This document shows, piece by piece, positions 12,749 to 60,645 of a stretch of 64,000 nt of DNA (the stretch's first letter is position 1; each line of letters starts with the position of its first letter). The notes under the pieces are model-generated. The model was not told the DNA's origin. It made no database searches and saw nothing but the letters and a program-made list of their open reading frames with translations. The position numbers and the translations under genes were made by a program. This DNA comes from an uncultured Gammaproteobacteria bacterium (GTDB taxonomy: Bacteria > Pseudomonadota > Gammaproteobacteria > Steroidobacterales > Steroidobacteraceae): contig CAVPOP010000001.1 in NCBI GenBank assembly GCA_963707115.1, forward strand, positions 180,145 to 244,144. The letters run 5' to 3'.

Positions 12749-12810
12749 AAGACCGCCAAGACCGACATTGAGCTGGGCAAGGCCCGCTACAGGATGATTG
12801 GAGGATAGCC

Positions 12811-14918: not shown

Positions 14919-15086
14919 GGTCAATAGATGAACGGAATTCATATACCATGTCAAGTATTCATCTGTTGTGGCGGACTGACAGAAGCTGCCACGCTCAATT
15001 GCATTCCATCGCAACCGAAGGATGAACCAGTGTCGCGACCGCGGCCATGGATCGCACCAACCGGCGAGCCTAAGCACAGCCAATCC

Positions 15087-17842: not shown

Positions 17843-17847
17843 TAAGT

Positions 17848-17924
17848 TGGCGCGCCCGGACGGATTCGAACCGCCGACCACTGCGTTCGAAGCGCAGTGC
17901 TCTATCCAACTGAGCTACGGGCGC
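17848..17924 (-). tRNA. tRNA-Arg (anticodon TCG), copy 2
   Basis: The body is identical to copy 1. Here the 3' CCA is encoded (TGG at 17848..17850 on the plus strand). Confidence 0.9.
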
Positions 17925-18047
17925 AATCCGAAATCAGGTTCCGCAGGCCTGTGCCCGCTCCATATCTCTCCTCGATCGGCGGCGGTGTCCTATGGCCCCG
18001 TTCTGGCCCGTCGCCAGGGATCCGCCCAGCCTGCCCCGTTGCGCTAG

Positions 18048-39702: not shown

Positions 39703-40605
39703 GGACGTTGCGCCAGGGCCAGCAGATAGTGACCACTGACCAGATCGCAGGGCCGCAGGCGCGTCAGCCGGAACCCCGATCCTTCCAGCCACTGGCGCAG
39801 GCCCAGCAGCGGATTCAGGCCGGTGCAGGCCTCGATATCGTCGAATCTCTCCACCACCAGCAGCCGGCCGGCGCGGCGCAAGACGCGGGCCGCTTCGTTG
39901 AGTACCGCGGCCGGACGCTCGGCGCCCGCGAGCACCCGATCGATCGTGACGGTATCGAAGGATTCGGCCGCAAAGGTGAGCGCGTACATGTCGCCGCGGT
40001 GGAACTCGCAGTGGGCGAGCGCGCGCCCGTGGAGCCTGGCCCGGGCCAGACGCAGCGCCGGCGCCGACAGGTCCACACCTACCGCGTGGCTGGCCTGGGC
40101 ACCGAGCACCTCGAGCAGTCGCCCGGCGCCGGTGCCGATGTCGAGCAGTTCCCCCAAGGCCACCGGTCCGAGTTCCTCACGCAGCACGCCCGCCAACCCG
40201 ACCTGATCCAGGTCCGCCGGCGCGCTGAGTCCGAGCTCACCGGTGGCCGATTTTTCGCGGTCCCCGACCACGACCGCCATGCGCACCCGGTCACGTTGCA
40301 ATGCGGGATCCTCGGGGTCTACGGCGGCCAGCAGTTCATTGAGCCAGGCGGCGCGGGGTCCGGCGGCCGGCGTGCGGTAATAGACGCGCTGCTGCTCGCG
40401 AGAGCGGTCCAGGAAGCCTGCCTCGGTAAGCAGCCTCAGGTGGCGGGACACCCGCGGCTGGCTCTGCCCCACCACCCGGCAGATTTCTCCCACGGTGAGC
40501 TCACCGTGGCCCAGGAGCGTTACCAGACGCAGCCGGGTGGGCTCGGCGAGGTTTCGGAGGACCCTGCACCACCTGTTCGATCTTCGTCCGGTTCTCCACC
40601 ATCAT
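39699..40605 (-). pseudogene. ArsR-family HTH fused to SAM-dependent methyltransferase, with one +1 frameshift near the 5' end
   Basis: [14 protein letters not shown] (from ATG 40605) and [45 protein letters not shown]... are offset by one extra G/C at ~40563..40565. The methyltransferase motif is [11 protein letters not shown]. The stop overlaps the metH start (ATGA). 907 nt = 302 codons + 1. Confidence 0.75.
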
Positions 40606-40634
40606 ATAAATATAAACATATCTTTATATATATG
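40601..40634. promoter_or_regulatory. AT-rich divergent promoter/operator region between the ArsR-methyltransferase gene and typA
   Basis: ATCATATAAATATAAACATATCTTTATATATATG is a striking AT island in GC-rich DNA. It carries an imperfect inverted repeat (CATATAAATATAAA / TTTATATATATG). Confidence 0.4.
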
Positions 40635-40742
40635 CCAGCCCGATGGGGTAAAATGTCTGCACGGCAGAGACTTAGCCGCGGCCGAACGCTTCTGGTACCC
40701 TGCACGGCCTTTTTGACCCGCCTTGTCGCAAGCTCCGCCCCT

Positions 40743-42570
<1,828 letters not shown>

Positions 42571-42779
42571 AGCGCGGACCGGCCCGCGTGCTGCGCGCGC
42601 GAAGCACGGCTGCACCGTGTCGGTGGCCGGCTACAACTCCCGCAAGCTTGCGCTTTACGCCAAAATCGCGCGAAGCTGCGCTGGCTGGGCCCGGACTTTC
42701 GCGCCGATTATTGGCAAATGGAACCTGCCCATGGAGCCCGAGTCCAAGCCGCAACGCGCCACTGCGACCGGAGAAATTC

Positions 42780-43292
42780 GTGCCCCCTAGCCGCTCTCGT
42801 ACCACATCTGGCCCAGTCACAGTTCGCCGCTCGGGCGCGAGGGCCGCTTCGCTTGCCGCGCTGCTGCTGCCATTGCTAGCCGGAGCATTGGCCGGCCCTG
42901 CCTGGGCCGCCCTCGGGGACACGGTGGCTGCCCTAAGCTCGGACTCTCAGGCGCTGCAGGCCAGTCCACGTGTTGCCGCGCACGCGGCGTTCACGGTCCA
43001 CGAACTGCAGACGCCCACCGGCACGCTGATCCGGGAATTCGCCGCGCCGTCGGGTGTGGTGTTTGCCGTCTCCTGGCGCGGTCCGTTCAAGCCCAGCATG
43101 GGGCTGCTGCTGGGCCGCTACATGGGCGTGTATGCGCGCGCGCCGCGCAGCCCGGGATCGACGCGTTCGCACCTCAGCATCGAGCAACCGGATCTGGTTG
43201 TGCACGCGGGAGGCCACATGCGCGCGTTTGCCGGCATCGCCTATATACCGCAATTGCTCCCCGCCAACGTGGTCGAGGCGGACCTGCAATGA
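42780..43292 (+). CDS. Secreted protein of unknown function (DUF2844-like)
   Basis: GTG at 42780 gives a signal peptide (...AASLAALLLPLLAGALAGPAWA/ALGD). The stop overlaps the start of the next gene. Family name recalled, not verified. Confidence 0.45.
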   Translation: MPPSRSRTTSGPVTVRRSGARAASLAALLLPLLAGALAGPAWAALGDTVAALSSDSQALQASPRVAAHAAFTVHELQTPTGTLIREFAAPSGVVFAVSWRGPFKPSMGLLLGRYMGVYARAPRSPGSTRSHLSIEQPDLVVHAGGHMRAFAGIAYIPQLLPANVVEADLQ

Positions 43293-44569
43293 GCGCACGC
43301 CAAATCCCGACGGCGGCCCTCGGCGCGCTGTCGCTGATTCTGCTCCACGCCTGTGGCGGCGGCGCGGGCAGCTCCAGCGCGCCGGCGCCACCGGCTCTCC
43401 CCACCGGCACCAATGTCGCGCCCCTCGTCGTCGATGCGGGGCCGGCGCAATTGGGCGTCAACATACCCTCGGTCAGCGTCACGATCTGTGAGCCGGGGAC
43501 CGCCAATTGCCAGACCATCGACCACATCCTGGTCGACACGGGTTCGAGCGGCTTACGGATCATCGCTTCGGCGTTCAACTCCGCTGCCGTCAACTTGCCG
43601 GCCGCCACCACTCCGGCCGGCGATCCGCTGTTCGAATGCTTCACCTTCGCGGACGGTTATAGCTGGGGGAGCGTGCGCGCGGCCGACATCCAGCTGGCGG
43701 ACGGCAGCGCCGCCAATTTGCGGATACAGCTGATCGCCGATCCGGCGATCCCCACCGCGCCCACCGACTGTTCCGAGGATCCGACCGCAAATCCGCCCAG
43801 TCCCATGTCCCCGCAGAACACGGTCGCGGAAGTGGGCGCGAACGGCATACTGGGGGTGAGTGTCTTCCTGCAGGACTGCGGCAGCGTGTGCGAAACGATA
43901 GCCAATCCCAATGGCCGCGGCTTCTACTACGCCTGTCCGGCCGGCGTCTGCGCCGGCACCACGGTTCTTGTGGCCGAGCAGGTGCAGAATCCGGTAAGCA
44001 AATTTGCGACCAATAACAACGGCGTCACCGTCGTCTTGCCGGCAATCACTGCGGTGGGCCAGGACACCGTCAGCGGCGCGCTGGTCTTGGGGATCGACAG
44101 CCAGTCCAACAACCAGCTCGGCAGTGCGGCAGTCCTGGGAGTGGATCCGTTCTCGGGCAGTTTCAACGTCGTCTTCAATGGCAACACCTACTCGCTGGGC
44201 GGATCCATTGATTCAGGCTCCAATGGAAACTTCTTCACCGACACGGCGTTAGCGGCCTGTACCAGCTCCCTTTATCCCGGGTGGTATTGCCCCGCCACCG
44301 CGGTAACGCTGTCGGCGACCAACCAAGGCGTCGGCAGCAGCAGTGCGACCTCCACCGTGTCGTTCAGTGTCGCGAGCATTTCCGCGCTCAGCAATGCCAA
44401 TCCCAGCTTTGCCGCGTACGACAACATTGCCGGCACGCTCTTCCAGCCATTTGTGGGCTTCGACTGGGGCTTGCCGTTCTTCTATGGACGCAGCGTTTCC
44501 GTCGCCTTCGAAGGGCAGCCGACCGCGGCCGGCAACGGGCCGTTCGTCGCCTACGCGGATTTCCTGTAG
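43289..44569 (+). CDS. Lipoprotein with pepsin-like (two D-T/S-G-S) architecture (DUF3443-like)
   Basis: Lipobox LLHAC. Motifs in pepsin-like order: HILVDTGSSGLRI (Asp ~83), ANGILGVS (~186), GGSIDSGSNGNFF (Asp ~308) and C-terminal FDWGLPFFYGRSVSVAFE. Confidence 0.5.
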   Translation: MSARQIPTAALGALSLILLHACGGGAGSSSAPAPPALPTGTNVAPLVVDAGPAQLGVNIPSVSVTICEPGTANCQTIDHILVDTGSSGLRIIASAFNSAAVNLPAATTPAGDPLFECFTFADGYSWGSVRAADIQLADGSAANLRIQLIADPAIPTAPTDCSEDPTANPPSPMSPQNTVAEVGANGILGVSVFLQDCGSVCETIANPNGRGFYYACPAGVCAGTTVLVAEQVQNPVSKFATNNNGVTVVLPAITAVGQDTVSGALVLGIDSQSNNQLGSAAVLGVDPFSGSFNVVFNGNTYSLGGSIDSGSNGNFFTDTALAACTSSLYPGWYCPATAVTLSATNQGVGSSSATSTVSFSVASISALSNANPSFAAYDNIAGTLFQPFVGFDWGLPFFYGRSVSVAFEGQPTAAGNGPFVAYADFL

Positions 44570-44571: not shown

Positions 44572-45207
44572 TCAGCGTTCGCCGTTGAGGAAGCGTACGA
44601 AGCGGTCCAGCGCTTGGCGCTGGTCGTCCCACAGCGTGTAGTTCAGCACCTCATCCCCCACGGTCGTCTGCACCTGCAGGCTCCGCGCGGCCGCAATAAA
44701 GCGCAGCGTGGCCAGGTCAGTCGGAAACACCAGTGGCTTGACCGTCCTTCCGGTGGGCGCGCCCACGGATCGAACAATGCCGAAATCCGCGGGAGTCCCG
44801 GCGCTCGTATCCAGCCGGATGCGCCGGTCGTCGGCCACCAGAACCAGGACATCGGCCACGGGCCTGGCCGGCTCATAGCGCGCGTCCAGCGTCGACCAGA
44901 CGTAGGCGATAAGCAGACAGTCCCGCTTGCCGCCGCGGTTCACGGTCGCGGCGGTCATGGTCACATAATCGCGTAGATTTGCGGCCCGTTCGCTCCGGTC
45001 CCGGGCGAACAGCAGCGGTTTGTCCATCGCCGTAACGGTGGCACCGCTCTGCTCATCGAGGTACTCGTAAGGCTGCTTGCCGTGTGCGGCCGCCGGGTCG
45101 ACGGCGGCAGGCCCGCTGGCGCACGCAGCAAGCAGCGCCGTGGTTCCACACACGGTGAACAAACTGCGACAGCGCGGCACTCGGGCGCGGCCTTGGCTAG
45201 AACGCAA
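44572..45207 (-). CDS. Lipoprotein of unknown function, translationally coupled to the upstream OM protein gene
   Basis: Lipobox TALLAAC/ASG. 211 aa. The start overlaps the stop of the 845-aa OMP gene by 11 nt. Confidence 0.5.
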   Translation of the reverse strand: MRSSQGRARVPRCRSLFTVCGTTALLAACASGPAAVDPAAAHGKQPYEYLDEQSGATVTAMDKPLLFARDRSERAANLRDYVTMTAATVNRGGKRDCLLIAYVWSTLDARYEPARPVADVLVLVADDRRIRLDTSAGTPADFGIVRSVGAPTGRTVKPLVFPTDLATLRFIAAARSLQVQTTVGDEVLNYTLWDDQRQALDRFVRFLNGER

Positions 45208-47707
45208 TGCGGTAGGACATGCTCACATAATAGCGTCTTGTGTTCTGGGTCTGAAGCGAGGAATCGCGTTTGCCAAACTCGTAACCCCCTTCGATCTGCA
45301 CCAGATTGCGCCCGCGCTGCCAGTCCAGGAGCGCCGAGGGCACCAGGCTGAGCTGGTTGCTGCCGTCGCTCGACAGCTGCTGGTGTATCACTGACAGACG
45401 CGGCCCGAGCCGCCACGTTGCCCCCACAGGGAAGCGCTCGGTCACGCTGGCCGAGTAGGTCTTCGCCGTCTGCGTGTCAGCGTACAGCACGCTCAGGACA
45501 CTGAAATCGCCCTCTTTCCAGACGTTGGACCCATACAGCTGTGCCTGGTATGCCGTCTGCAGGCCGCTCGCCTCCTGCGCGGGCACGATGGTGCCGACGC
45601 CATTGGTAGCCCCGAACTGCTGGGCGCTCACCGTCGCCGCAAACTGGTAGCGCGGCCCCAGCGGCCGCGATACGGTCACACTGTAGCTGCTGGAGCTCGA
45701 GGTGTTATCGCGCGCATTCTGATAGATGGCATCGGTGGGCAGGCCGATTGATTGGTAGAATTGTGCCAATTCATCCAGCGTGCTGAACGGCTGTCCAATC
45801 AGCGCATTTTGCGTCGTCAGCACCGGCGCATTGCGTCGCTCGGCGTCGAAACTCAGGTTCCAGCGCGCGGGCAGCTGCATCGTGCCCAGGATCGCCGCGG
45901 TGTTGAGTGACTGGTAGAAGATGTCGTAGTCCAGCAGTGCGGTAACCGAGGCGCTCGGCAGCAGCAGCCTCAGCTGTGTGCCCACCGCCTCTCGGTCCGT
46001 GAAGCCGTCGCTGCGCCATTGGGTATAAAACAGACTCGCGTCCCAGTGCTTGCCGACGGGCGTATAGGGTACGGCCACTGACCAGAACTTTCGGGCCGTC
46101 TGCAATCCCATATTGGTCTGCTCGACCGGGAAACCGGCAATCAGGTTAATCCCGATGTCCGGCCGCACCTGCCAGGCGGCAAACAATCCGTCAAACGTGC
46201 CGAGTGCGCCGTCGAAATTTTGCACCTGCCTGCCGAGCCTGGCGAACACGCTGGCCACGCGATCGTCGATTTCGACCGAGGCGATGCTGACGCGGGTCGA
46301 GGCGTCGTTGGCGCTGGTGGGGGAATTACCGGCGAAATTCTTGGCGTAGGTCAGACTGGTACGCGCCAGCAGATCAAAGCGCTGCCCGCGCCGGCGCGCC
46401 AGCACGTCGAGGTCGTTGTACAGCGAGTTAGAACTCTGGGACTGTGAGGTGGGGGCGGTACCCGAGCCAGGCGCCCCGGGCGTTACGGTGTTGTCCACCC
46501 GCGTGCTGTCGTAGCGGTACGTCTGGCCAAAGCCGCCCTCGAGGCTCCACAGCTTCGCGCTCTCCGCGCCGCCTCCGGTGCCGGTGCGCGCCGCGGTGGA
46601 AGCGGCGCGCAGTGTGGCCAAGCGGCGTGCGACCCGATCGGCCGCCTCGCCCGTTGGGTAGCGGCGCAGGTACTCCTCGTATTCGGCCTTGGCATGCGCG
46701 AGTTGCCCGGAACGTTCCCGCGCCAGGCCCAGCAGCTCTTGCATCTGCGCGCGCTGCGGAAACTCGGGCTGGCGCTGCAGTTTGGTCAGCAGCGGCACGG
46801 CTTTGGGGTAATCACGGGCGTTCATTGCGGCGCGTGCCTGCGCCACCAGCTCGGCCAGGTCCGCCGCTGGCAGCGGCGGGTCGGCGCCCATGGGCTCGAC
46901 GGCGGGCAGCGCTTCGCCACCGCCCCGCGTCGTGGCGGCATCATCGCCGATGGCCAACCAGGCCCGCGGGTAATCGGTGAGGGCCTGGTTGAGAATGCGC
47001 TCGGCATCCGCGCGCTTGTCGAAGGGCCCGGCGCGCAGCCGGTACCAGGTCACCCCGTCTACGACGGCCTGACTGACGAACACGGACACCTTGAGCTGGT
47101 CGCGTGCGCGCTGAATCGCCTCGGGACGGTAGTCGGCGGGCTGCGATTCCAGGTTGACGGCGTAGCTGCTGGCCGGACCGCTCGGCTCGTTCAGGGTGAT
47201 CTTGCCGTGACCGCGGGCCCGATCGATCAAACGCAATCGCATCCCGCGCAGGTCCGCACCTTGCGCTATCACGAAGCGCTCCGATTTGCGAAAGCTGAAA
47301 GCCAGCGTCAGCTGCCCGGGCACGTCCGAGTCGACGCGCACGTTGTTGATAATGTTGGCGCCCCCCGACAGCGGCGGCAGCTCCCCAACCGTCTGGGTGG
47401 CAAGCGAAAATCCACAATCGCCCTGCGGCTTTAACTGGATGCGCAGCTCCTTGCCCTCGGCCGCCGGCTGATGCGTGATGTAGCGCACCGAGCAATTGAA
47501 CTGCACGGCGATGTCGGCCTGATCGTCGTGATCGGTGAGTTCGACCAGGTCGACGATGCGGGTCGGGCCGTTAGCGCCGATCTGCGCGCGCGCCGTGACC
47601 CAAGGCAGGACGCCCATCAATAGCAGCGTTGCGTGCAGCAGCGCCGCGCCCCGGGACCGTGCGGGCGCGGCGGAGCCCCGAGCGGGTGCTGCCCGGGGCC
47701 GGTTCAT
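45197..47707 (-). CDS. Outer-membrane protein: AMIN-like + SPOR + TPR periplasmic region fused to a C-terminal beta-barrel
   Basis: Signal peptide (MNRPRAAP...LLLMGVLPWVTARAQ). N-terminal beta-rich AMIN-like block. SPOR-like YAVNLES...VVDGVTWYRLRAGPFDKRADAERIL. TPR-like helices (YPKAVPLLTKL..., AEYEEYLRRYP). About 450 aa of amphipathic strands end in YYVSMSYRIAF, an OMP-type terminal Phe. Alternative ATG at 47734. Confidence 0.6.
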   Translation of the reverse strand: MNRPRAAPARGSAAPARSRGAALLHATLLLMGVLPWVTARAQIGANGPTRIVDLVELTDHDDQADIAVQFNCSVRYITHQPAAEGKELRIQLKPQGDCGFSLATQTVGELPPLSGGANIINNVRVDSDVPGQLTLAFSFRKSERFVIAQGADLRGMRLRLIDRARGHGKITLNEPSGPASSYAVNLESQPADYRPEAIQRARDQLKVSVFVSQAVVDGVTWYRLRAGPFDKRADAERILNQALTDYPRAWLAIGDDAATTRGGGEALPAVEPMGADPPLPAADLAELVAQARAAMNARDYPKAVPLLTKLQRQPEFPQRAQMQELLGLARERSGQLAHAKAEYEEYLRRYPTGEAADRVARRLATLRAASTAARTGTGGGAESAKLWSLEGGFGQTYRYDSTRVDNTVTPGAPGSGTAPTSQSQSSNSLYNDLDVLARRRGQRFDLLARTSLTYAKNFAGNSPTSANDASTRVSIASVEIDDRVASVFARLGRQVQNFDGALGTFDGLFAAWQVRPDIGINLIAGFPVEQTNMGLQTARKFWSVAVPYTPVGKHWDASLFYTQWRSDGFTDREAVGTQLRLLLPSASVTALLDYDIFYQSLNTAAILGTMQLPARWNLSFDAERRNAPVLTTQNALIGQPFSTLDELAQFYQSIGLPTDAIYQNARDNTSSSSSYSVTVSRPLGPRYQFAATVSAQQFGATNGVGTIVPAQEASGLQTAYQAQLYGSNVWKEGDFSVLSVLYADTQTAKTYSASVTERFPVGATWRLGPRLSVIHQQLSSDGSNQLSLVPSALLDWQRGRNLVQIEGGYEFGKRDSSLQTQNTRRYYVSMSYRIAF

Positions 47708-48015
47708 TGCGGTCACTGGCGCGCCTTCACTCAATGCGATGCCTGCTGCGGAAAAACTGCCTCAATCCACATTATGCAAAGGCGTCCCCGTTCGGCGGTG
47801 TGATGGGACTCGCACCCATACCAATCGCCGAGACACGGAGAACCACGTCACACAATGATTGCGCGTCACACCATACAGCGGCGTGCGGGTGCGACTCGAC
47901 TTGTCGCCGATTGACGCCTTGTCGCCATTTGACGTCGCGCAATCGGGGGAGCCACGCGCGGCGCCCGAACGACTAGGGCGCCGTTACGGGCGGATTCGTT
48001 CGCAGTGCGGTGCTG

Positions 48016-51000
48016 CTAATGCTTGAACGCCACGTTTGACGGCCGGTGGTACGGTCCCGGCTGTGGCTTGACGACCGTCTTCGCGGTGGCGTCGCTGTAG
48101 ACATGGCAGGCGCCGGCGCAATCGCGCAGCTCGCTCGAGGTGTACAGGATGCCGCCGCTCGTCTTCGGGTGCGCGACGGGCTTGAAGTCCTTGGTGTGGC
48201 AACCCGCACAGCTTCCGGCATTGGCCGGAGCCGGCCAGGGTATCAGGTCCGAATTGCTGGTATGACATGCGGTGCAGGCCAGCGCCGCCTTGTGATCGCC
48301 CGGATAAGCGCTCCCGGTATGCATGAAATGCGTCTGCGCCCAGTCCGGATAGCTGTGGCAGGTCGCGCAATCGAGTTTGCTGTTCATGTGAGTCGCCGGC
48401 ACGCCGAGCGCAACGGCATTGTTGTGACAGCTCACACACTGGCGGGTCAGAGTCGTGTGATCGACCTTGGCCGGCTTCCAGGCAAGAGTCCCGTGGCAGC
48501 TGTCGCACTGCGCGCCGGTCGGCACGTGGCTCGAGGGCAGACCCATGGCATGCACGCTGTCGTGGCAGCTCCTGCAGGTGTGCGCCGCCACTCCGGCATG
48601 GTCGAAGCGCGCGGGCGTCCAGGCATTCGTCGTATGGCAGGTCTCGCAGGTGTTGCTGCTCGCGATGTGGCTCATCGACTTGCCCTGCGCCACTCTGCCG
48701 TTGTGGCAGCTGGCACAACTGCCCTGCACCTGGGCGTGATCGACCATAACCACCGGCAGCCAGGCGTGCGTGTTGTGGCAGCTGCCACAGCCGTTGCTGC
48801 TCGCTATGTGGTCGGCGGGCTTGCCTGCGCCCTGCGCCGAGCTGTGGCAGGTCACGCACGGCGTAGCCGCCGCGCGCGTGTGATTGAATCCGCCCACCGC
48901 GGGCACCAGCGCGGCCGCGCCGCCCAGCGCCGAGCCTGCGCGGGTGAGTCCGCCGCCGGTGCCGGCCGCCGCAGCGCCCGGGCGTATGGCCCTCTTGTCG
49001 CGGGAGTTGTGGCAACCCGAGCCGCCGCAGTCCTGGCCCGCATGATGGTTGGCGCTGTCGCGTACCCACAGTCTCACGCCGGTGTTGGTCTTCCACTTCA
49101 TGCCCAATTCGTGACAACTCATGCAGGTGATGGTGGTCACGTAGGCGTGTTTCATGACCGTGCCCGCAAAGGTCGTGAAGTTGGTGGGGCTGTGGCACAG
49201 CTCGCAGGCGACGTTCAGACTCGATCCGTTGGGCGGGTTGGAAGGAATGTGCCCGGTCGCACCGGACGGCGGCTGCTTCAGGGTGGGCGGAGCCATGTTG
49301 GCGAACGACAGGCCGTAGGCGTGGCAGGTGGCGCAGCCCTTGGTAATGCCGGTGTGCCCGGTCGCGCCCATCACGTACACCGCGTAGTTGCCCGCGGTGG
49401 TGTGACACTGCGCGCACGGGGCGGTGGTCGGAATGTGGTTGGCCGGCTTGGATCCCCCCGACACGTTGCTTGAGAACGTCGGGGTATTCGTGTGACAGCC
49501 GCTGCAGTCGCCCGTGGTCGGGTGACTCTTATCGAGCGTCGCATTCGGCCGCGAGTCCCCGGCCGCGGTCGAGGTGCTGGCGATCATCCCGACATACGGG
49601 GCGGTCTCGTGGCAGCTGGTACACGCGCCGACCTGCCCGGCCACGGTGGTATGGCCGGCCACGTTCAGGGTCGGGCTGTTGAGGTTCGCCGCACCGATCT
49701 TGAAGCCCCCGGCCGTGAGCTTGGCGGTGGTGTGGCAGCCCGAGCCGTCGCAATCGAGATTGCCGATCGGGATGTGATTTATCCCGGTGGTGCTCACGAT
49801 CGTGATATTCGCAAAGGTGTTGGCCACCGCGGGCGCGTGGCAGCTCAGGCAGTTGGTCACGCCCTGGTGGGTGCCGGTCACCGAGTAGACGGCATTGTTG
49901 CCCGCGGTGGTGTGGCACTGCGCGCACGGGGCCGTGGTCGGTATGTGATTCGCAGGCTTCGCGTTGCCGGTCTGGTTCGTCGTGAACGTCGGGGTCGTGG
50001 TATGGCAGCCGTTGCAGTCGCCCGTGGTCGGGTGACTCTTATCAAGCGTCGCATTCGGCCGCGAGTCCCCTGCCACGGTCGAGGTGCTGGCGATCATCCC
50101 CACATAGGGCGCGGACTGGTGGCACGTCTGACAGGCCCCGACCTGCCCCGACACGGTGTTATGGCCGGCCACGTTCAAGGTCGGGGCGCTGACGCTTGCC
50201 GCGCCAATCTTGAACCCCCCCGCGGTGACCTTGGCTGTGCTGTGACAGCCCGATCCGTTGCAATCGAGGTTACCGATCGGGATGTGATTTATCCCGGTGG
50301 TGCTCACGATCGTGATATTCGCAAAGGTGTTGGCCACCGCAGGCGCGTGGCAGCTCAGGCAGTTGGTCACGCCCTGGTGGGTGCCGGTCACCGAGTAGAC
50401 GGCATTGTTGCCCACGGTGGTGTGACACTGCGCGCACGGGGCCGTGGTCGGTATGTGATTTGCAGGCTTCGCGTTGCCAGTCTGGTCCGTCGTGAACGTC
50501 GGGGTTGTGGTATGGCAACCGCTGCAGTCGCCCGTGGTCGGGTGACTCTTGTCCAGGGTGGCATTGGGCCGCGAGTCCCCGGCCGTGCTTGCGGTGCTGG
50601 CGATCATCCCCACGTAAGGCGCAGTCTCATGACAGGTGGTGCAGGCGGGTACCTTCCCCGCCACGGTGGTGTGTCCGGTCACGTTCAGGGTCGGCGCTGA
50701 AATGTTGGCCGCACCGAGCCTGAAACCACCGGCGGTGACCTTGGCTGTGCTGTGACAGCCCGAGCCGTTGCAATCCAGGTTGCCGATCGGCATGTGGTTG
50801 GTGCTGGCCGTGCCCACGATGGTGACGTTGGCCCAGCCACCCGCGGGCGGCGGCCCATGGCAGCTCAGGCAGTTACTCACGCCCTGGTGCGTGCCGCTCA
50901 CCGAATAGAGCGCGTAGTTGCCCGCGGTGGTGTGGCATTGGGAGCAGGTGGCGGTGGTCGGAATGTGGTTGGCAGGTTTCGCGCCCTGGGACACGTCCGA

Positions 51001-54000
51001 ACTAAAGGTGGGCGTCTGCGTGTGGCAGTCACCGCAGTCGCCGGTGGTCGGATGGTTCTTATCCAGCGTGGCATTGGGCCGCGAGTCCCCCGCCACGGTC
51101 GAGGTGCTGGCGATCATCCCGACGTAGGGCGCGGACTGGTGGCACGTCTGACAGGCCCCGACCTGCCCCGACACGGTGTTGTGGCCCGCTAAGCTCAAGG
51201 TCGGGCTATTGATGTTCGCCACGCCAATCTTGAACCCCCCCGCGGTGACCTTGGCTGTGCTGTGACAGCCCGAGCCGTTGCAATCCAGGTTGCCGATCGG
51301 CATGTGGTTGGTGCTGGCCGTGCCCACGATCGTGACGTTGGCCCAGCCACCCGCGGGCGGCGGCCCGTGGCAGCTCAGGCAGTTGCTCACGCCCTGGTGC
51401 GTGCCGCTCACCGAGTAGAGCGCGTAGTTGTTCGCCGTGGTATGGCACTGCGCGCACGGCGCGGTGGTCGGTATGTGGTTGGCCGGCTTGCTGCCGCCGG
51501 TCATGTCGCTCGCGAACGTCGGGGTCGTGGTGTGGCAGCCTGAGCAATCGCCGGCGGTGGGATGCAGCTTATCGAACGCGGTCGGCCGCGAGTCCCCCGC
51601 CACGGTCGAGGTGCTGGCGATCATCCCGACATACGGGGCGGTCTCGTGGCAGCTGGTACACGCGCCGACCTGCCCCGCCACGGTGGTGTGCCCGGTCACG
51701 TTCAGGGTCGGCGCTGAAATGTTGGCCGCACCGAGCCTGAAACCACCGGCGGTGACCTTGGCTGTGCTGTGACAGCCCGAGCCGTTGCAATCCAGGTTGC
51801 CGATCGGCATGTGGTTGGTGCTGGCCGTGCCCACGATGGTGACGTTGGCCCAGCCCCCCGCGGGCGGCGGCCCATGGCAGCTCAGGCAGTTACTCACGCC
51901 CTGGTGCGTGCCGCTCACCGAATAGAGCGCGTAGTTGCCCGCGGTGGTGTGGCATTGGGAGCAGGTGGCGGTGGTCGGAATGTGGTTGGCAGGTTTCGCG
52001 CCCTGGGACACGTCCGAACTAAAGGTGGGCGTCTGCGTGTGGCAGTCACCGCAGTCGCCGGTGGTCGGATGGTTCTTATCCAGCGTGGCATTGGGCCGCG
52101 AGTCCCCCGCCACGGTCGAGGTGCTGGCGATCATCCCGACGTAGGGCGCGGACTGGTGGCACGTCTGACAGGCCCCGACCTGCCCCGACACGGTGTTGTG
52201 GCCCGCTAAGCTCAAGGTCGGGCTATTGATGTTCGCCACGCCAATCTTGAACCCCCCCGCGGTGACCTTGGCTGTGCTGTGACAGCCCGAGCCGTTGCAA
52301 TCCAGGTTGCCGATCGGCATGTGGTTGGTGCTGGCCGTGCCCACGATCGTGACGTTGGCCCAGCCACCCGCGGGCGGCGGCCCGTGGCAGCTCAGGCAGT
52401 TGCTCACGCCCTGGTGCGTGCCGCTCACCGAGTAGAGCGCGTAGTTGTTCGCCGTGGTATGGCACTGCGCGCACGGCGCGGTGGTCGGTATGTGGTTGGC
52501 CGGCTTGCTGCCGCCGGTCATGTCGCTCGCGAACGTCGGGGTCGTGGTGTGGCAGCCTGAGCAATCGCCGGCGGTGGGATGCAGCTTATCGAACGCGGTC
52601 GGCCGCGAGTCCCCCGCCACGGTCGAGGTGCTGGCGATCATCCCCACGTAAGGCGCAGTCTCGTGACAATTGGCGCACGCCCCCACCTGCACGGCGACGG
52701 TCGCGTGGCCGGCCACGTTTAAGGTCGGCGCGCTGATGCTTGCCGCACCGATTTTGAACCCCCCCGCGGTCACCTTGGCTGTGCTGTGACAACCCGAGCC
52801 GTTGCAATCGAGGTTACCGATCGGAATGTGGTTTATCCCACTGGTGCTCACTATTTTGATATTGGCAAAGGTGCCGGCCACCGCAGGCGCGTGGCAGCTC
52901 AGGCAGTCGGTCACGCCCTGGTGGGTGCCGGTCACCGAGTAGAGCGCGAAGTTGCCCGCGGTGGTGTGGCACTGCGCGCAGGGGGCGCTGGTCGGAATGT
53001 GGTTGGCGGGCTTCGCGCCCTGGGACACGTCCGAACTAAAGGTGGGCGTCTGCGTGTGGCAGTCACCGCAGTCGCCGGCGGTCGGATGGTTCTTATCCAG
53101 CGTGGCATTGGGCCGCGAGTCCCCCGCCACGGTCGAGGTGCTGGCGATCATCCCGACGTAGGGCGCGGTCTCGTGACAATTGGTGCACGCTCCCACCTGT
53201 GCGGCCACCGTGGTATGTCCGGCCACGTTCAAGGTCGGCGTACTGATACTCGCCGCACCGATCCTGAACCCCCCCGCGGTCACCTTGGCTGTGCTGTGAC
53301 AGCCCGAGCCGTTGCAATCCAGGTTGCCGATGGGCATGTGGTTGGTGCTGGCCGTGCCCACGATCGTGACGTTGGCCCAGCCCCCCGCGGGTGGCGGCCC
53401 GTGGCAGCTCAGGCAGTCGGTCACGCCCTGGTGGGTGCCGCTCACCGAATAGAGCGCGTAGTTGTTCGCCGTGGTATGGCACTGCGCGCACGGCGCGGTG
53501 GTCGGTATGTGGTTGGCCGGCTTGCTGCCGCCGGTCATGTCGCTCGCGAACGTCGGGGTCGTGGTGTGGCAGCCTGTGCAGTCGCCGGTGGTGGGATGGT
53601 TCTTATCCAGCGTGGCATTGGGCCGCGAGTCCCCCGCCACGGTCGAGGTGCTGGCGATCATCCCGACGTAGGGCGCGGTCTCGTGACAATTGGTGCACGC
53701 CCCCACCTGTGCGGCCACCGTGGTATGTCCGGCCACGTTCAAGGTCGGCGTACTGATACTCGCCGCACCGATCCTGAACCCCCCCGCGGTCACCTTGGCT
53801 GTGCTGTGACAGCCCGAGCCGTTGCAATCCAGGTTGCCGATGGGCATGTGGTTGGTGCTGGCCGTGCCCACGATCGTGACGTTGGCCCAGCCCCCCGCGG
53901 GTGGCGGCCCGTGGCAGCTCAGGCAGTCGGTCACGCCCTGGTGGGTGCCGGTCACCGAGTAGAGCGAATTGTCTCCTGCCGTCGTGTGACACTGCGCGCA

Positions 54001-55347
54001 GGGCGCGCTGGTCGGAATGTGGTTAGCGGGCATGGCATTGCCGCTCTGATTCGAAGTGAACGTCGGCGTCGTGGTGTGGCAGCCGCTGCAGTCGCCAGCC
54101 GTTGGGTGACTCTTGTCCAAAGTGGCATTGGGCCGCGAGTCCCCCGCCACGGTCGAGGTGCTGGCGATCATCCCCACATAGGGCGAGGTCTCGTGACAGG
54201 TGCTACAGGCCGGCACCTTGCCCGCCACGGTCGTGTGTCCGGCCACGTTGAGGGTCGGGGCATTGATGCTCGCCGCACCCAGGCGGAAGCCCCCGGGGTT
54301 CACGTTGCTGGTGCTGTGACAACCCGAACCGTTGCAATCGAGGTTGCCGATCGGGATATGGTTGGTGCTGGCCGTGCCCACGATCGTGATGTTGGCCCAG
54401 CCGCCGGCCGGCGGTGGTCCGTGGCAGCTCAGGCACTCGCTCACTCCCAGGTGCGTGCCCGTCACGGAGTAACTGGAGTTCTGTCCCGGGGTCGTATGGC
54501 ACTGCGCGCACGGCGCGCTGGTCGGAATATGGTTTGCCGGTCGCAACGACGCGGCGGCGGTAAATGAAGTGGTATCGTGGCAGATGCCGCAGTCGCCGGT
54601 CGGGGGATGATTCTTGTCCAGCGTCGCGGATGGCCGCGAATCGTGCGCGGCGCTTGCAGTGCTCGGGATCATGCCCATGAACTGTGCCGTCTCGTGGCAG
54701 CTCTGGCAGGCCCAGCCGGCGGCGGTCGCGTGCACTGCCGGAGTCCCGGTCACATCGTGCCAGGTCGTGTAATTGGTGGGGGAATGGCACCCCTCGCAGC
54801 TTCCAGCCCCCGCCGGAACCGTCGGTATATGCGTTGCGGGCTGGCCCTTGGCACTCACGTTGTTGTGGCAGGACGCGCAGCCGGTAGTCATTCCATTGTG
54901 ATTGAACACGGCCCCCGCCCAGCCGATGGTGGAGTGGCAAACGCTGCAATCAAGGTCGGTGACAATGTGATTCGGGCCCTCGCCGCCAACCGGGCTGCCC
55001 GCGTAATGACAGCTCACGCAGCTGCCCATCACCTCGTTGTGGCTGAAGTTGACGGCCGGATTCCAGGCCACGGGCGTATGGCAGGCGTAACAATTGTTCG
55101 TGGTGAGAATGTGGTTGGCCGGCTTGGCCGAGGCGCGCACCGAGGTGCCCACGCCGTGACACTGCTCGCAGTCGCGGGGCGTGCCCTTGAATATGGCATT
55201 GACGTGGCAGGACTCGCATGGCAGGTCGCGATGCTGCCCGGTGAGTTCAAAGCCCGTGGTCAAATGGTCAAAGAGCGTCCGTTGCGCGGACACGCCCTCG
55301 GCGGCGTGTGCGCTCTCCGCAGGCCCCCACAGCGGCAGGCAGGCCAT
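48016..55347 (-). CDS. Giant multihaem c-type cytochrome (~75 haem-binding motifs)
   Basis: 2443-aa uninterrupted ORF. Hand count gives 63 CXXCH + 11 CX4CH (CNGSGCH/CDGSGCH/CGGSGCH) + 1 CX3CH (CAGACH). Ten tandem 169-170-aa pentahaem modules sit between paired-CXXCH N- and C-terminal regions. A signal-peptide-like AHA/AEG site lies near the N-terminus. Start codon uncertain (see findings). Confidence 0.9.
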   Translation of the reverse strand: MACLPLWGPAESAHAAEGVSAQRTLFDHLTTGFELTGQHRDLPCESCHVNAIFKGTPRDCEQCHGVGTSVRASAKPANHILTTNNCYACHTPVAWNPAVNFSHNEVMGSCVSCHYAGSPVGGEGPNHIVTDLDCSVCHSTIGWAGAVFNHNGMTTGCASCHNNVSAKGQPATHIPTVPAGAGSCEGCHSPTNYTTWHDVTGTPAVHATAAGWACQSCHETAQFMGMIPSTASAAHDSRPSATLDKNHPPTGDCGICHDTTSFTAAASLRPANHIPTSAPCAQCHTTPGQNSSYSVTGTHLGVSECLSCHGPPPAGGWANITIVGTASTNHIPIGNLDCNGSGCHSTSNVNPGGFRLGAASINAPTLNVAGHTTVAGKVPACSTCHETSPYVGMIASTSTVAGDSRPNATLDKSHPTAGDCSGCHTTTPTFTSNQSGNAMPANHIPTSAPCAQCHTTAGDNSLYSVTGTHQGVTDCLSCHGPPPAGGWANVTIVGTASTNHMPIGNLDCNGSGCHSTAKVTAGGFRIGAASISTPTLNVAGHTTVAAQVGACTNCHETAPYVGMIASTSTVAGDSRPNATLDKNHPTTGDCTGCHTTTPTFASDMTGGSKPANHIPTTAPCAQCHTTANNYALYSVSGTHQGVTDCLSCHGPPPAGGWANVTIVGTASTNHMPIGNLDCNGSGCHSTAKVTAGGFRIGAASISTPTLNVAGHTTVAAQVGACTNCHETAPYVGMIASTSTVAGDSRPNATLDKNHPTAGDCGDCHTQTPTFSSDVSQGAKPANHIPTSAPCAQCHTTAGNFALYSVTGTHQGVTDCLSCHAPAVAGTFANIKIVSTSGINHIPIGNLDCNGSGCHSTAKVTAGGFKIGAASISAPTLNVAGHATVAVQVGACANCHETAPYVGMIASTSTVAGDSRPTAFDKLHPTAGDCSGCHTTTPTFASDMTGGSKPANHIPTTAPCAQCHTTANNYALYSVSGTHQGVSNCLSCHGPPPAGGWANVTIVGTASTNHMPIGNLDCNGSGCHSTAKVTAGGFKIGVANINSPTLSLAGHNTVSGQVGACQTCHQSAPYVGMIASTSTVAGDSRPNATLDKNHPTTGDCGDCHTQTPTFSSDVSQGAKPANHIPTTATCSQCHTTAGNYALYSVSGTHQGVSNCLSCHGPPPAGGWANVTIVGTASTNHMPIGNLDCNGSGCHSTAKVTAGGFRLGAANISAPTLNVTGHTTVAGQVGACTSCHETAPYVGMIASTSTVAGDSRPTAFDKLHPTAGDCSGCHTTTPTFASDMTGGSKPANHIPTTAPCAQCHTTANNYALYSVSGTHQGVSNCLSCHGPPPAGGWANVTIVGTASTNHMPIGNLDCNGSGCHSTAKVTAGGFKIGVANINSPTLSLAGHNTVSGQVGACQTCHQSAPYVGMIASTSTVAGDSRPNATLDKNHPTTGDCGDCHTQTPTFSSDVSQGAKPANHIPTTATCSQCHTTAGNYALYSVSGTHQGVSNCLSCHGPPPAGGWANVTIVGTASTNHMPIGNLDCNGSGCHSTAKVTAGGFRLGAANISAPTLNVTGHTTVAGKVPACTTCHETAPYVGMIASTASTAGDSRPNATLDKSHPTTGDCSGCHTTTPTFTTDQTGNAKPANHIPTTAPCAQCHTTVGNNAVYSVTGTHQGVTNCLSCHAPAVANTFANITIVSTTGINHIPIGNLDCNGSGCHSTAKVTAGGFKIGAASVSAPTLNVAGHNTVSGQVGACQTCHQSAPYVGMIASTSTVAGDSRPNATLDKSHPTTGDCNGCHTTTPTFTTNQTGNAKPANHIPTTAPCAQCHTTAGNNAVYSVTGTHQGVTNCLSCHAPAVANTFANITIVSTTGINHIPIGNLDCDGSGCHTTAKLTAGGFKIGAANLNSPTLNVAGHTTVAGQVGACTSCHETAPYVGMIASTSTAAGDSRPNATLDKSHPTTGDCSGCHTNTPTFSSNVSGGSKPANHIPTTAPCAQCHTTAGNYAVYVMGATGHTGITKGCATCHAYGLSFANMAPPTLKQPPSGATGHIPSNPPNGSSLNVACELCHSPTNFTTFAGTVMKHAYVTTITCMSCHELGMKWKTNTGVRLWVRDSANHHAGQDCGGSGCHNSRDKRAIRPGAAAAGTGGGLTRAGSALGGAAALVPAVGGFNHTRAAATPCVTCHSSAQGAGKPADHIASSNGCGSCHNTHAWLPVVMVDHAQVQGSCASCHNGRVAQGKSMSHIASSNTCETCHTTNAWTPARFDHAGVAAHTCRSCHDSVHAMGLPSSHVPTGAQCDSCHGTLAWKPAKVDHTTLTRQCVSCHNNAVALGVPATHMNSKLDCATCHSYPDWAQTHFMHTGSAYPGDHKAALACTACHTSNSDLIPWPAPANAGSCAGCHTKDFKPVAHPKTSGGILYTSSELRDCAGACHVYSDATAKTVVKPQPGPYHRPSNVAFKH
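49450..54540 (-). repeat. Intragenic tandem array of ten ~507-510-bp coding repeats (pentahaem modules)
   Basis: Each unit starts PANHIPT..C.QCH. Shadow-ORF pairs in the track are identical at offsets of 1017 nt (e.g. 50918..51127 vs 51935..52144; 51206..51547 vs 52223..52564) and 510 nt (53161-53440 vs 53671-53950, 1 mismatch seen in the stretches compared). Confidence 0.9.
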
Positions 55348-55429
55348 CGCCGCTAGCGCCGCGAGGCGCAGTGCGCTTGCAGACCAAACCGATCGGCGCC
55401 TTGTTGGGGAAGTGGTTTGCAGATCCCGC

Positions 55430-59304: not shown

Positions 59305-60645
59305 GTGGCCATTGGGCCCGTGAGATTTGACCTAATGAAATTGAGCCTAATCGCCGTATACGCCGCGCCGTTCATGTTGATCATGTTCTGGTATCTGCGG
59401 CGGCATTTTCGCTTTGAGAAGATCAGCCGCGCAGTGCACTTCGAGGCGAAGGAAGCCGGCCTGCTCGAGCCCGCCTCCCTGCACCCGGTCATCGACCCGG
59501 TGCGCTGTCTGGGTTGCGGCGCGTGCGTGCGCGCGTGCCCGGAGTACCCGCAGCATACCGTGCTTGGCCTGATCAACAACAAAGCACAGCTGGTCAACCC
59601 CACAGAATGTATCGGTCATGGCGCCTGCAAGTCTGCCTGCCCGGTTGATGCCATTTCGCTGGTGTTTGGCACCGCGACGCGCGGAATCGACCTGCCGGTG
59701 CTGCTGCCGAATTTTGAGACCAACGTCCCGGGCGTATTCATTGCCGGCGAACTGGGCGGCATGGGGCTGATACGGAACGCGTTGATTCAGGGAATCCAGG
59801 CCGTTGAAGCCATCCAGAAGAAGAACCAGCGCGCCCCCGGCAAGCGCCTGGACGTGCTCATCGTGGGCGCCGGCCCGGCCGGCATGGCCGCCTCACTCAC
59901 GGCCAAGTCGCTGAAACTTACCTACCGCACGGTTGAACAGGAGTCGCTCGGAGGCTGCGTATTCAAATACCCGCGCGGCAAACTGGTCATGACGGCGCCG
60001 GTCGAGCTGCCGCTGGTGGGCCGCTTTCACTTCCGCCACACCTCCAAAGAGGCCCTGCTCAAAGTCTGGACCGAGATCATGCAGCGCGAACAGCTGCGGA
60101 TCCAGACCAACGAGCGCGTGGCCTCCATTGAAAAGGACGGCGATGGGTTCATTGTCCGCACGTCCAAGGCCGCCTACCGCGCCTCGACGGTGCTGCTCGC
60201 GATCGGGCGGCGCGGCACACCCCGCAAACTGGCCGTGCCGGGTGAGGAACTGCCCAAGGTCGTGTACCGGCTGGTCGATCCCGACCAGTACATCGGCCAG
60301 GAGGTGCTCGTGGTCGGTGGCGGGGACAGCGCCCTGGAAGCGGCCGCGAGCGTCGCGGAGGTCTCGGGTACGCAGGTCACGCTCTCCTATCGCGGCGACG
60401 CCTTCGGTCGGGCCAAGCCCAGGAACCGTCAGCGGGTTGCACAGGCTGCAGATCGCGGCAATCTGAAGCTATTGCTGTCCTCGAGCGTCAGTGAAATCAA
60501 CCATGACCTGGTGATTCTCGAACATGGCGGCACGCAGGTCGCGATCAAGAACGAGGCGGTTATCATCAGCGCTGGCGGCGTCCTGCCGAACGAATTCCTA
60601 AAGACGGTCGGCATCCGAGTCGAAACCAAATACGGCACCGCCTGA
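59305..60645 (+). CDS. Membrane-anchored 2x[4Fe-4S] ferredoxin-domain / FAD-NAD(P)H oxidoreductase
   Basis: N-terminal TM helix followed by a basic stretch (YLRRHFRFEK, so the catalytic part is predicted cytoplasmic). CLGCGACVRACP and CIGHGACKSACP cluster motifs. VLIVGAGPAGMAA (FAD) and VLVVGGGDSALEAA (NAD(P)H) Rossmann motifs. Confidence 0.8.
   Translation: MAIGPVRFDLMKLSLIAVYAAPFMLIMFWYLRRHFRFEKISRAVHFEAKEAGLLEPASLHPVIDPVRCLGCGACVRACPEYPQHTVLGLINNKAQLVNPTECIGHGACKSACPVDAISLVFGTATRGIDLPVLLPNFETNVPGVFIAGELGGMGLIRNALIQGIQAVEAIQKKNQRAPGKRLDVLIVGAGPAGMAASLTAKSLKLTYRTVEQESLGGCVFKYPRGKLVMTAPVELPLVGRFHFRHTSKEALLKVWTEIMQREQLRIQTNERVASIEKDGDGFIVRTSKAAYRASTVLLAIGRRGTPRKLAVPGEELPKVVYRLVDPDQYIGQEVLVVGGGDSALEAAASVAEVSGTQVTLSYRGDAFGRAKPRNRQRVAQAADRGNLKLLLSSSVSEINHDLVILEHGGTQVAIKNEAVIISAGGVLPNEFLKTVGIRVETKYGTA

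Follow-up and report, generated by a model that had tools for sequence, protein, structure and literature searches.

The locus described here raises the question of what a single polypeptide with 75 haem-attachment motifs might do in a bacterial cell envelope, and whether it could serve as a wire for electrons. The window, by which we mean the whole stretch of 64,000 nucleotides that was analysed, lies on contig CAVPOP010000001.1 of an uncultured gammaproteobacterium (assembly GCA_963707115.1), and the open reading frame (ORF) listing of the window gave one uninterrupted frame of 2443 codons on the minus strand (48016-55347). A preliminary description, made from the letters alone, had called the product one of the largest haem loads for a single polypeptide and had suggested a covalent molecular wire long enough to span the periplasm and reach beyond the outer membrane. 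The evidence points, with a probability that we put at roughly 70%, to a large and probably cell-surface or extracellular cytochrome of a trans-envelope conduit of the PCC3 type of porin-cytochrome cluster, in an uncultured gammaproteobacterium near metagenome-assembled genomes (MAGs) of the Steroidobacterales. The protein would be an additional large member of a kind already on record, with its function and location predicted, and its exact sequence was already present in NCBI/ENA, on a contig of 949,429 bp.

A scripted count returned 75 motifs ending in CH, namely 63 CXXCH, 11 CX4CH and one CX3CH, identical to the numbers counted by hand in the preliminary description, and the density of 32.4 residues per haem agreed with its ratio of about one haem per 33 residues. 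When the protein was shuffled with its composition kept (n = 2000), the mean was 1.8 motifs and the maximum was 8. All but one of the 151 cysteines were located inside haem motifs, the sole exception being Cys3 within the remnant of the signal peptide; in the mature protein every cysteine sits in a haem motif. The composition was, as had been claimed, rich in Thr, Ser, Gly and Ala (45.5% together), with few charged residues (D/E/K/R, 8.0%) and few large hydrophobic ones (FILMVWY, 18.3%). The computed mass was 244 kDa for the apoprotein and about 290 kDa with 75 haems. Each region of the protein holds at least two histidines per haem motif, with exactly 100 for the 50 motifs of the central array, and therefore bis-His ligation of all 75 haems would be possible with the conserved histidines present in the sequence. 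The cytochrome c3/c7 superfamily was matched far above the cut-offs (PF14522, 212.7 bits against 24.8; PF14537, 194.2 against 25; PF02085, 89.2 against 22.9), with Cytochrome_C7 found at E=4e-64 in 12 stretches and Cytochrom_c3_2 matched as well. The five-haem domain II/IV of MtrC/MtrF-like proteins (PF22113) was matched at 173.9 bits against a cut-off of 30 (E=3e-51), in 11 stretches along the array. The paired pattern of c3/c7-type proteins, H(I/V)..C..CH..W..F.H, which had been noted earlier at both ends, was recovered in its strict form at residues 79, 127, 2227 and 2320, and in a relaxed form at six sites, all in the N- and C-terminal regions. A sequence search of the PDB with the whole protein (phmmer) gave no match.

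A repeat search and a self-comparison script resolved the centre of the protein into ten tandem modules of 169/170 residues, as the preliminary description had proposed with its tenfold array. Tandem Repeats Finder reported nothing in the gene, the period of 507/510 nt being above its 500-nt limit. Each module carries one CNGSGCH (CX4CH), four CXXCH and five further invariant histidines. With a profile of the module, the best match in the PDB was NrfB at E=0.012, and no solved structure matched the module by sequence. The mature protein opens with a family-wide FDHLTTGFEL motif at the start of an N-terminal domain, and the array is followed by a shorter segment with five haem motifs, a haem-free linker and a C-terminal domain (Table 1). 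A gap like the linker, followed by 10-11 motifs, was present in 77 of 90 close homologues. The C-terminal domain gave weak phmmer matches in the PDB to 9eov_A (E=2.9e-5) and 6r2q_A (E=1.3e-4), both chains of the Shewanella Mtr system; we take 6r2q_A to be MtrA of the MtrCAB structure, although the search table labels it otherwise. The same domain scored 44.7 bits against the NCBIfam DmsE family, below the cut-off of 192.2. It thus appears weakly similar to decahaem cytochromes of the MtrA/DmsE type and could serve as a docking or plug domain.

The ends of the protein were better conserved than its centre. The N-terminal domain is 55-92% identical in relatives, including those with differing arrays, and the segment after the array is 54-92% identical. 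In the distant relatives P0112 and P0097, identity is 54-70% in the N-terminal cap, post-array segment and C-terminal domain but only 33-35% in the array modules. The end domains are kept while the array modules diverge, and we therefore infer that the conserved ends are interfaces around a variable central spacer.

To place the gene in a known context, the locus was compared with the PCC3 cluster, which was defined from genomes by He et al. (2017, Front Microbiol 8:1584, PMC5566968). There, the outer cytochrome has a median of 34 haems, contains repeats, is rich in Thr, Ser, Ala and Gly and has about 33 residues per haem, and this Thr/Ser/Ala/Gly-rich member of the cytochrome pair was predicted to be extracellular. 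For the periplasmic cytochrome the median is 21 haems. The inner-membrane protein, of about 300 residues, has five helices and carries WX3HX13H on the third and the fifth and SGXXG on the fourth; it was likened to ferric-reductase domains and proposed to be a quinone-reactive cytochrome b. All features of this definition that can be tested in a sequence were found in the window. A predicted barrel protein is encoded directly downstream of the 75-haem gene (ORF 45197-47734), the large cytochrome combines 75 motifs and 32.4 residues per haem with 45.5% T+S+G+A and ten tandem modules, the second cytochrome has a signal peptide, 521 residues and 21 CXXCH, equal to the PCC3 median, and the membrane protein of 280 residues has five hydrophobic segments, two WX3HX13H and one SGXXG. 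The locus thus shares with PCC3 the barrel, the haem-rich repetitive Thr/Ser/Ala/Gly cytochrome, the 21-haem periplasmic cytochrome, the five-helix membrane protein and the ratio of about 33 residues per haem.

In the membrane protein, WYRIH-x13-H lies on the third hydrophobic segment, SGLIG on the fourth and WHVAH-x13-H on the fifth, and both motif types are kept in 121 of 122 homologues. The protein had no Pfam or NCBIfam match, and for Ferric_reduct (PF01794) none at E<=0.01; both HX13H pairs are present and conserved, and the protein is a putative dihaem b protein resembling the ferric reductase domain.

The cluster in the window differs from PCC3 as described in several respects. The outer cytochrome of its clade is built from 170-residue five-haem modules that bear CX4CH and vary in number between close relatives, its barrel has SPOR and TPR domains, and a CcmI-like gene, a lipoprotein, an iron-sulfur (Fe-S) flavoprotein and a periplasmic ankyrin protein are conserved with the cluster. 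A term search of PMC5566968 found no mention of ferredoxin, FAD or ankyrin. In number, 75 haems exceed the 10-35 of the Gallionellaceae outer PCC3 cytochromes, whose periplasmic partners have 21-27 (PMC9900912), but stay below the 85 of PMC5566968. The published maxima are 85 and 87 motifs per protein, with gene neighbourhoods of 'over a hundred' motifs.

The wire itself was not a new proposal, as He et al. (PMC5566968) had already described the cluster type, the repeats, the ratio of about 33 and a molecular wire, and had counted 63 and 85 haem sites in single proteins, the 85 in Bradyrhizobium (Agromonas) oligotrophicum S58; carriers of PCC3 that they named also include S. lithotrophicus ES-1, Leptothrix cholodnii SP-6 and Amphritea atlantica. 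Hoover et al. (2023, PMC9900912) modelled PCC3 cytochromes as long and linear and suggested that the partner with 21-27 haems spans the periplasm. Of the covalent wire in the preliminary description, the part that stands is that the anatomy and the neighbourhood fit a haem wire of a trans-envelope conduit; nothing shows one polypeptide spanning the periplasm, for which the 21-haem cytochrome is the usual candidate (PMC9900912). What goes beyond the literature searched are the conserved end domains including the linker-tethered domain with 11 haems, the link to a flavoprotein and the lack of a canonical start codon ahead of the signal peptide in this copy. Modest added value lies in the end domains, the flavoprotein link and the series of module numbers.

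The series became apparent when relatives were collected. A protein search returned 679 homologues at E<=1e-10, annotated as 'cytochrome c3 family protein' or 'hypothetical', the few source names being Steroidobacteraceae and Gammaproteobacteria MAGs. The motif counts of the homologues were quantised, with 44/45 in proteins of about 1400 residues, 55 in about 1780, 65 in about 2130 and 70 in 2268. A scan of species-representative genomes gave four close loci, in which the order ankyrin, flavoprotein / CcmI-like, membrane protein, 21-haem cytochrome, giant cytochrome, barrel, lipoprotein / DUF3443, DUF2844, typA is strictly kept and the flanking proteins are 61-99% identical. At this fixed chromosomal place the giant gene has 65 motifs in 8 modules (L002), 75 in 10 (the window) or 85 in 12 (L001, on a 1.6-Mb contig), and it is frameshifted in L004. 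The metagenome contigs L015 and L016 repeat the layout; the giant gene of L016 encodes 1565 residues, and protein P0114, with 50 motifs, was assigned to it by matching protein length and contig. The search for homologues and repeat numbers that the preliminary description had called for thus yielded orthologues with 50, 65 and 85 motifs, so that the length varies through duplication of modules in tandem. The first and last modules are orthologous between genomes and the inner modules group by genome, which indicates that the array evolves by lineage-specific tandem duplication or conversion.

At larger distances a core of flavoprotein, membrane protein, mid-size cytochrome and giant cytochrome, with the barrel where the contig allows, is kept in a gammaproteobacterial MAG (L005), a Kofleriaceae MAG (L006) and the Rhodocyclales locus of P0098. 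The giant protein P0098 has 125 motifs in 3326 residues in a PCC3-type row, and occurs at 90% identity or more in 16 database entries. A two-module profile run against 1.84 billion representative proteins matched 774 clusters at E<=1e-3 and 184 at E<=1e-30, and among the best 149 matches 15 had at least 75 motifs and four at least 100, with maxima of 133, 129, 125 and 124. The largest relatives (P0098, P0091 at L010 8001-17825, P0117 at L011 31-10809, and P0392) carry 124-133 motifs in 3274-3949 residues. The window protein therefore keeps a place in the upper tail of haem loads, and a record count is rejected by these relatives as well as by the published 85 and 87. A literature search for 'giant cytochrome' found nothing, and close homologues had been described bioinformatically but not experimentally. 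The idea that every giant relative belongs to a PCC3 cluster was ruled out by P0091, P0097, P0105 and P0117, on the stretches available. Stand-alone giants with 77 and 80 motifs were also seen (L009 10001-17224 and L012 5736-13301), with N- and C-terminal caps like those of the window protein and a different array; they adjoin DUF1501/DUF1800 genes and a 112-residue ORF, and no barrel or membrane partner lies nearby.

The barrel was examined by structure prediction. An AlphaFold2 model of the 845-residue protein (64-sequence alignment) had a mean predicted local distance difference test score (pLDDT) of 77, about 90 in the barrel, with 22 strands across residues 397-844. Pfam matched SPOR and TPR only, with no MtrB/PioB match. 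Foldseek placed the barrel model among outer-membrane barrels in the PDB (FimD usher, MOMP, AlgE) at low TM-scores, which confirms the fold class of the model and points to no specific relative.

The mechanism that would follow is one in which electrons hop from haem to haem along the giant cytochrome, between the barrel-embedded 21-haem cytochrome and extracellular redox partners that are distant or insoluble. The 75-haem protein is placed outside the barrel because of the analogy with PCC3. The conserved end domains would act as interfaces and the central array as a spacer whose length is set by tandem duplication of modules (50, 65, 75 and 85 motifs), so that the number of modules would tune the length of the wire. 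In solved multihaem wires each haem takes up roughly 0.8-1 nm along the chain, and on this basis 75 haems could reach some tens of nanometres. Transfer may run either way, as export to Fe(III), Mn(IV) or humics or as uptake from Fe(II) or minerals; the sequence does not tell the direction. The natural series of 50, 65, 75 and 85 sites, with the same ends and at the same locus, offers a clean system for asking whether the length of a wire governs the reach or rate of extracellular electron transfer, and also bears on how a protein of about 290 kDa is matured and exported. PCC3 clusters, whose function has so far been inferred from genomes, occur widely in bacteria of soil and sediment and in iron-cycling bacteria.

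At the inner membrane, the dihaem-b protein would probably receive its electrons not from quinol but from the NAD(P)H-type Fe-S flavoprotein encoded next to it. The flavoprotein, predicted to face the cytoplasm, is kept beside the membrane protein in every locus examined (L001, L002, L004, L005, L006, L015, L016 and the P0098 locus), and these loci span three phylum- or class-level groups. This constant pairing, an argument from gene neighbourhood only, therefore suggests a step linked to NAD(P)H rather than to quinol, in the form of a split entry or exit point that resembles NADPH oxidase (NOX). The membrane protein is like the ferric reductase domain (FRD) of NADPH oxidases and ferric reductases in having two HX13H pairs, on helices 3 and 5, where FRD binds two b haems, and like NOX and ferredoxin-NADP reductase (FNR) systems in always standing beside a membrane-anchored NAD(P)H-type flavoprotein. 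In contrast to NOX and ferric reductases, there are two separate proteins, five helices instead of six and no Pfam Ferric_reduct match; the flavoprotein is of a Fer4 and Pyr_redox_3 type, and the acceptor would be a multihaem cytochrome and not O2 or an Fe(III) chelate. Distant relatives of the membrane protein were observed on plasmids, at L013 6824-10510 (Variovorax sp. WDL1 plasmid 3) and L014 5043-8526 (Alteromonas macleodii plasmid pAlt83_a). There, a 250-residue membrane protein with two HX13H pairs stands between a membrane-anchored FNR-type flavoprotein (FAD_binding_6, NAD_binding_1 and Fer2; 2Fe-2S) and a 7-haem cytochrome of the c3 family, with copper-resistance genes as neighbours in Variovorax and hydrogenase genes in Alteromonas. 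This triad looks like a minimal porin-less relative of the inner-membrane module, and its arrangement supports the NOX-like reading. A literature search on PCC3 for such a reading returned only He et al. (2017) and, within the searchable library, no paper proposing it. If true, a flavoprotein feeding the dihaem-b protein would be a bypass of the quinone pool, and would change how energy conservation and the direction of flow are read from metagenomes.

The two lines can be joined into a wider reading, which we hold tentatively and with low confidence. PCC3-type conduits of this kind may then have no link to quinone: a split, NOX-like oxidoreductase for NAD(P)H and cytochrome c would be made up of the dihaem-b protein and the Fe-S flavoprotein, and would pass electrons directly between the 21-haem cytochrome and NAD(P)H or ferredoxin in the cytoplasm. 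In the giant cytochrome the cell would have a nanowire made of one polypeptide, with a length open to evolution, held in, and possibly threaded through, the 22-strand barrel with its SPOR and TPR domains by the linker-tethered, weakly MtrA-like C-terminal domain.

Likenesses to other known systems are partial. By analogy, the cluster resembles MtrCAB, MtoAB and PioAB, where a barrel-sheathed periplasmic multihaem cytochrome hands electrons to an outer cytochrome, and it also resembles the Mtr system in that its modules match the Pfam MtrC/MtrF domain II/IV and its C-terminal domain is weakly MtrA-like. It differs from Mtr in the 22 predicted strands of its barrel, in an outer cytochrome without a lipoprotein signal and in 75 haems as opposed to the ten of decahaem MtrC. 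Membership of MtrCAB/MtoAB was rejected, with 44.7 bits against 192.2 for TIGR03508 (DmsE/MtrA), 42 against 209.3 for TIGR03507 (OmcA/MtrC) and no MtrB/PioB barrel match. The Geobacter nanowires OmcS, OmcE and OmcZ offer a comparable long-range transport on a continuous chain of bis-His c-type haems, again by analogy, but they are polymers of small subunits, whereas here a comparable number of haems would lie in one covalent polypeptide; an OmcS-type polymeric nanowire was rejected for the single polypeptide and the lack of a PDB sequence match. In MAGs from karst ghost-rock (PMC13264449, FEMS Microbiol Ecol 2026), 'Group 1' clusters have a cytochrome gene of 4-5 kb beside a porin of about 20 strands, and a gene for ferredoxin-NADP reductase lay close by in 7 of 11 cases; Steroidobacteraceae are in that data set. 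The window gene is 7.3 kb long compared with 4-5 kb, and the likeness was drawn via gene maps only, by which the Group 1 clusters look like the same clade as the window cluster.

Several points weigh against assigning the protein to a working PCC3-type conduit. Its expression, haem loading and location are presumed, PCC3 is still termed 'functionally unverified' in the literature, and expression of PCC3 genes fell on Fe(II) in Sideroxydans lithotrophicus ES-1. The likeness to PCC3 is one of description and not of alignment with Slit_0867-0870; among the protein-search matches listed, which carry few organism names, none came from the strains of the Slit_0867-0870 or Leptothrix cholodnii SP-6 clusters. 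The NCBIfam scores for MtrA/DmsE and MtrC were far under their cut-offs. An AlphaFold2 model of a two-module segment (31-sequence alignment) was unusable, with a pLDDT of 47 and a predicted template modelling score (pTM) of 0.23, and leaves the shape and length of a rod unsupported. The giants P0091, P0097, P0105 and P0117 had no porin or membrane partner on the stretches available. Finally, no ATG, GTG or TTG was found in the in-frame stretch upstream of 55347, a near-identical duplication of 1017 nt inside the gene could be an assembly artefact, and base errors or a non-functional allele are possible. The last three are set out below.

Among the alternatives, the one that survives best is a dedicated Fe(II)/Mn(II) oxidase, in which the giant cytochrome would be the extracellular oxidising surface and electrons would pass to the quinone pool via the inner-membrane protein. 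PCC3 is known from iron- and manganese-oxidising bacteria and has been modelled as an oxidation route (PMC5566968, PMC9900912), and, for one PCC3 copy in Sideroxydans sp. CL21, the gene of the inner-membrane component rose during iron oxidation. The down-regulation in S. lithotrophicus ES-1 argues the other way, as do the karst MAGs with porin-cytochrome clusters, most of which lacked carbon fixation and were read as electron exporters (PMC13264449). In the window and in the distant relatives, moreover, the partner of the inner-membrane protein is an NAD(P)H-type Fe-S flavoprotein and not a quinol-site protein, and no Cyc2-like or carbon-fixation gene was found among the window ORFs scanned. 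We consider the oxidase unlikely.

Less likely still is that the 75-haem protein stays in the periplasm as an electron store or relay, with only the 21-haem cytochrome threaded through the barrel. A Sec-type signal (truncated in this copy) is seen on the protein, with neither a lipobox nor a recognised surface-sorting signal, and those window ORFs that were scanned with Pfam included no secretion-system genes. A capacitor has been raised as an idea for PCC3 (PMC9900912), and the giant relatives without an adjoining porin gene would suit it. On the other hand, analogy with solved multihaem wires leads to the estimate that a 75-haem rod would be much longer than the periplasm is wide, in the syntenic loci the giant gene and the barrel gene always adjoin each other, He et al. 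(PMC5566968) predicted the Thr/Ser/Ala/Gly-rich partner in PCC3 pairs to be extracellular, and the linker-tethered, weakly MtrA-like C-terminal domain looks like a piece for docking to a barrel.

The caveats on the gene model concern its start, its internal repeats and the assembly. The ATG at 55347 leaves only 15 residues (MACLPLWGPAESAHA) ahead of a cleavage-like site, so the signal peptide is cut short, and the in-frame sequence upstream (...RRDLQTTSPTRRRSVWSASALRLAALAA) resembles the n- and h-regions that are missing. Just beyond the end of the upstream gene there is a CTG (55420-55422), which follows a Shine-Dalgarno-like AAGGTAGG at a distance of 6 nt. In homologues the signal peptide is complete, and the mature protein after it begins with the same FDHLTTGFEL. 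At the homologous start codon the closest orthologue (L001) has ATG, the window CGG and L002 CTG, with a later ATG in L002. For the window copy, either a non-canonical start, a base error or an allele that has lost its start could account for this. Within the array, the two copies of a 977-nt repeat differ by 3 mismatches and share an exact run of 788 nt; identity is 100% between modules 5 and 7 and 95% between modules 4 and 6. How many modules the gene has is therefore a matter of the assembly. In the same window typA/bipA (39708-42570, plus strand) is split into two overlapping ORFs by a break near 41327, where a 1-nt insertion was seen (GTGCCGCGCGCC compared with GTGCC-CGCTCC in L001). Apart from this break the protein shares 97-99% identity with relatives, and the break is probably an assembly base error that bears on trust in the start region of the cytochrome gene; because of it, base-level errors are plausible there too. 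The missing start codon and the internal duplication matter before anything is built on the window copy. That this copy is not a working gene at all, being either a start-loss allele with no export signal or an assembly artefact of repeats in length or sequence, is nevertheless the least likely of the alternatives: the absent start codon, the broken typA and the 788-nt repeat speak for it, but the 7.3-kb frame is fully open with all 75 motifs and all distal histidines intact, orthologues with 8 and 12 modules in other large-contig assemblies show that long arrays are real in the clade, L002 also has no ATG at that codon and starts elsewhere, so that the start position varies in the clade, and a CTG with a good Shine-Dalgarno-like sequence is available.

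Table 1. Features of the 75-haem gene and of its neighbours, in window positions
Feature	Position	Strand	Details
75-haem multihaem cytochrome c ORF	48016..55347	-	2443 aa; presumed outer/extracellular cytochrome of PCC3-type cluster
In-frame upstream stretch LQTTSPTRRRSVWSASALRLAALAA	55348..55422	-	Would complete a normal signal peptide
N-terminal domain	54541..55302	-	aa 16-269; 9 CXXCH, ~24-aa spacing, c7/c3 type
Ten-module tandem array	49447..54540	-	aa 270-1967; 169/170-aa units, period 507/510 nt, 50 haem sites
Recent two-module duplication	50651..52644	-	977 nt at 51668-52644 recurs at 50651-51627, offset 1017 nt
Post-array segment	49009..49446	-	aa 1968-2113; 5 haem motifs (4 CXXCH, 1 CX4CH), conserved across family
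Gly/Ala-rich haem-free linker	48868..49008	-	aa 2114-2160; sole long gap between haem sites (largest gap 55 residues)
C-terminal domain	48019..48867	-	aa 2161-2443 (283 aa); 11 haem motifs, mostly 23-24 aa apart
Lipoprotein, 211 aa	44572..45207	-	LLAAC lipobox; predicted; syntenic in relatives (194-aa gene at same place in one)
Outer-membrane protein, 845 aa	45197..47734	-	Signal peptide, beta-sandwich, SPOR, TPR, predicted C-terminal 22-strand barrel ending ...YRIAF
Cytochrome, 521 aa	55430..56995	-	Signal peptide, 21 CXXCH; presumed periplasmic multihaem cytochrome
Inner-membrane protein, 280 aa	57017..57859	-	Five hydrophobic segments; WX3HX13H at aa 74 and 255; SGLIG at aa 115
CcmI/CycH-like protein, 421 aa	57869..59134	-	Membrane anchor, TPR, Ig-like; Pfam Ig_CycH E=2.8e-25 and TPR_CcmH_CycH
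Fe-S flavoprotein	59305..60645	+	N-terminal membrane anchor, two [4Fe-4S] motifs, Pyr_redox_3 FAD/NAD(P) domain; divergent
Ankyrin/Sel1-repeat protein, 656 aa	60645..62615	+	Signal peptide, predicted periplasmic; start overlaps flavoprotein stop

The genes around the 75-haem cytochrome form a closely spaced, operon-like row on the same strand, from the CcmI-like gene through the membrane protein, the 21-haem cytochrome and the 75-haem gene to the barrel protein and the lipoprotein. The gene of the 521-residue cytochrome is syntenic in L001, L002, L004-L006, L015 and L016, and a PDB sequence search with the protein gave no match. The real start of the barrel gene is probably an ATG about 9 codons into the ORF. 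A CcmI-like gene is also present in L015 and L016, and a TPR_CcmH gene in the P0098 locus; as a guess, the protein may be a dedicated apocytochrome chaperone that helps to mature the giant apocytochrome. The ankyrin/Sel1 gene is syntenic in L001, L002, L004 and L005, and it is likewise a guess that the periplasmic protein may help to assemble the giant cytochrome.

In the gap of about 300 nt between the cytochrome and barrel genes, an 18-nt direct repeat (CTTGTCGCCAATTGACGC) is present in 1.9 copies at 47900-47934. A promoter and terminator scan of the locus, including this region, stayed at chance level. Convergent to the cluster lies a DUF2844/DUF3443 pair (42588-44569, plus strand), DUF3443 being a predicted lipoprotein; the pair adjoins the cluster in L001-L004, and in L016 only DUF3443 was called.

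Elsewhere in the window, the G+C content shifts near 18 kb from about 0.60-0.62 (1-18000) to about 0.64-0.68 (18001-64000). The lower part encodes FG-GAP/ASPIC proteins, a P-type ATPase, LysR regulators, aminotransferases and a permease, and may be of different origin. A transposase ORF of the IS110 family (31115-32134, plus strand; DEDD_Tnp_IS110 and Transposase_20) stands among housekeeping genes, and an iron/manganese transporter of the VIT1 family with an N-terminal extension of about 120 residues is encoded at 23086-24114 on the plus strand.

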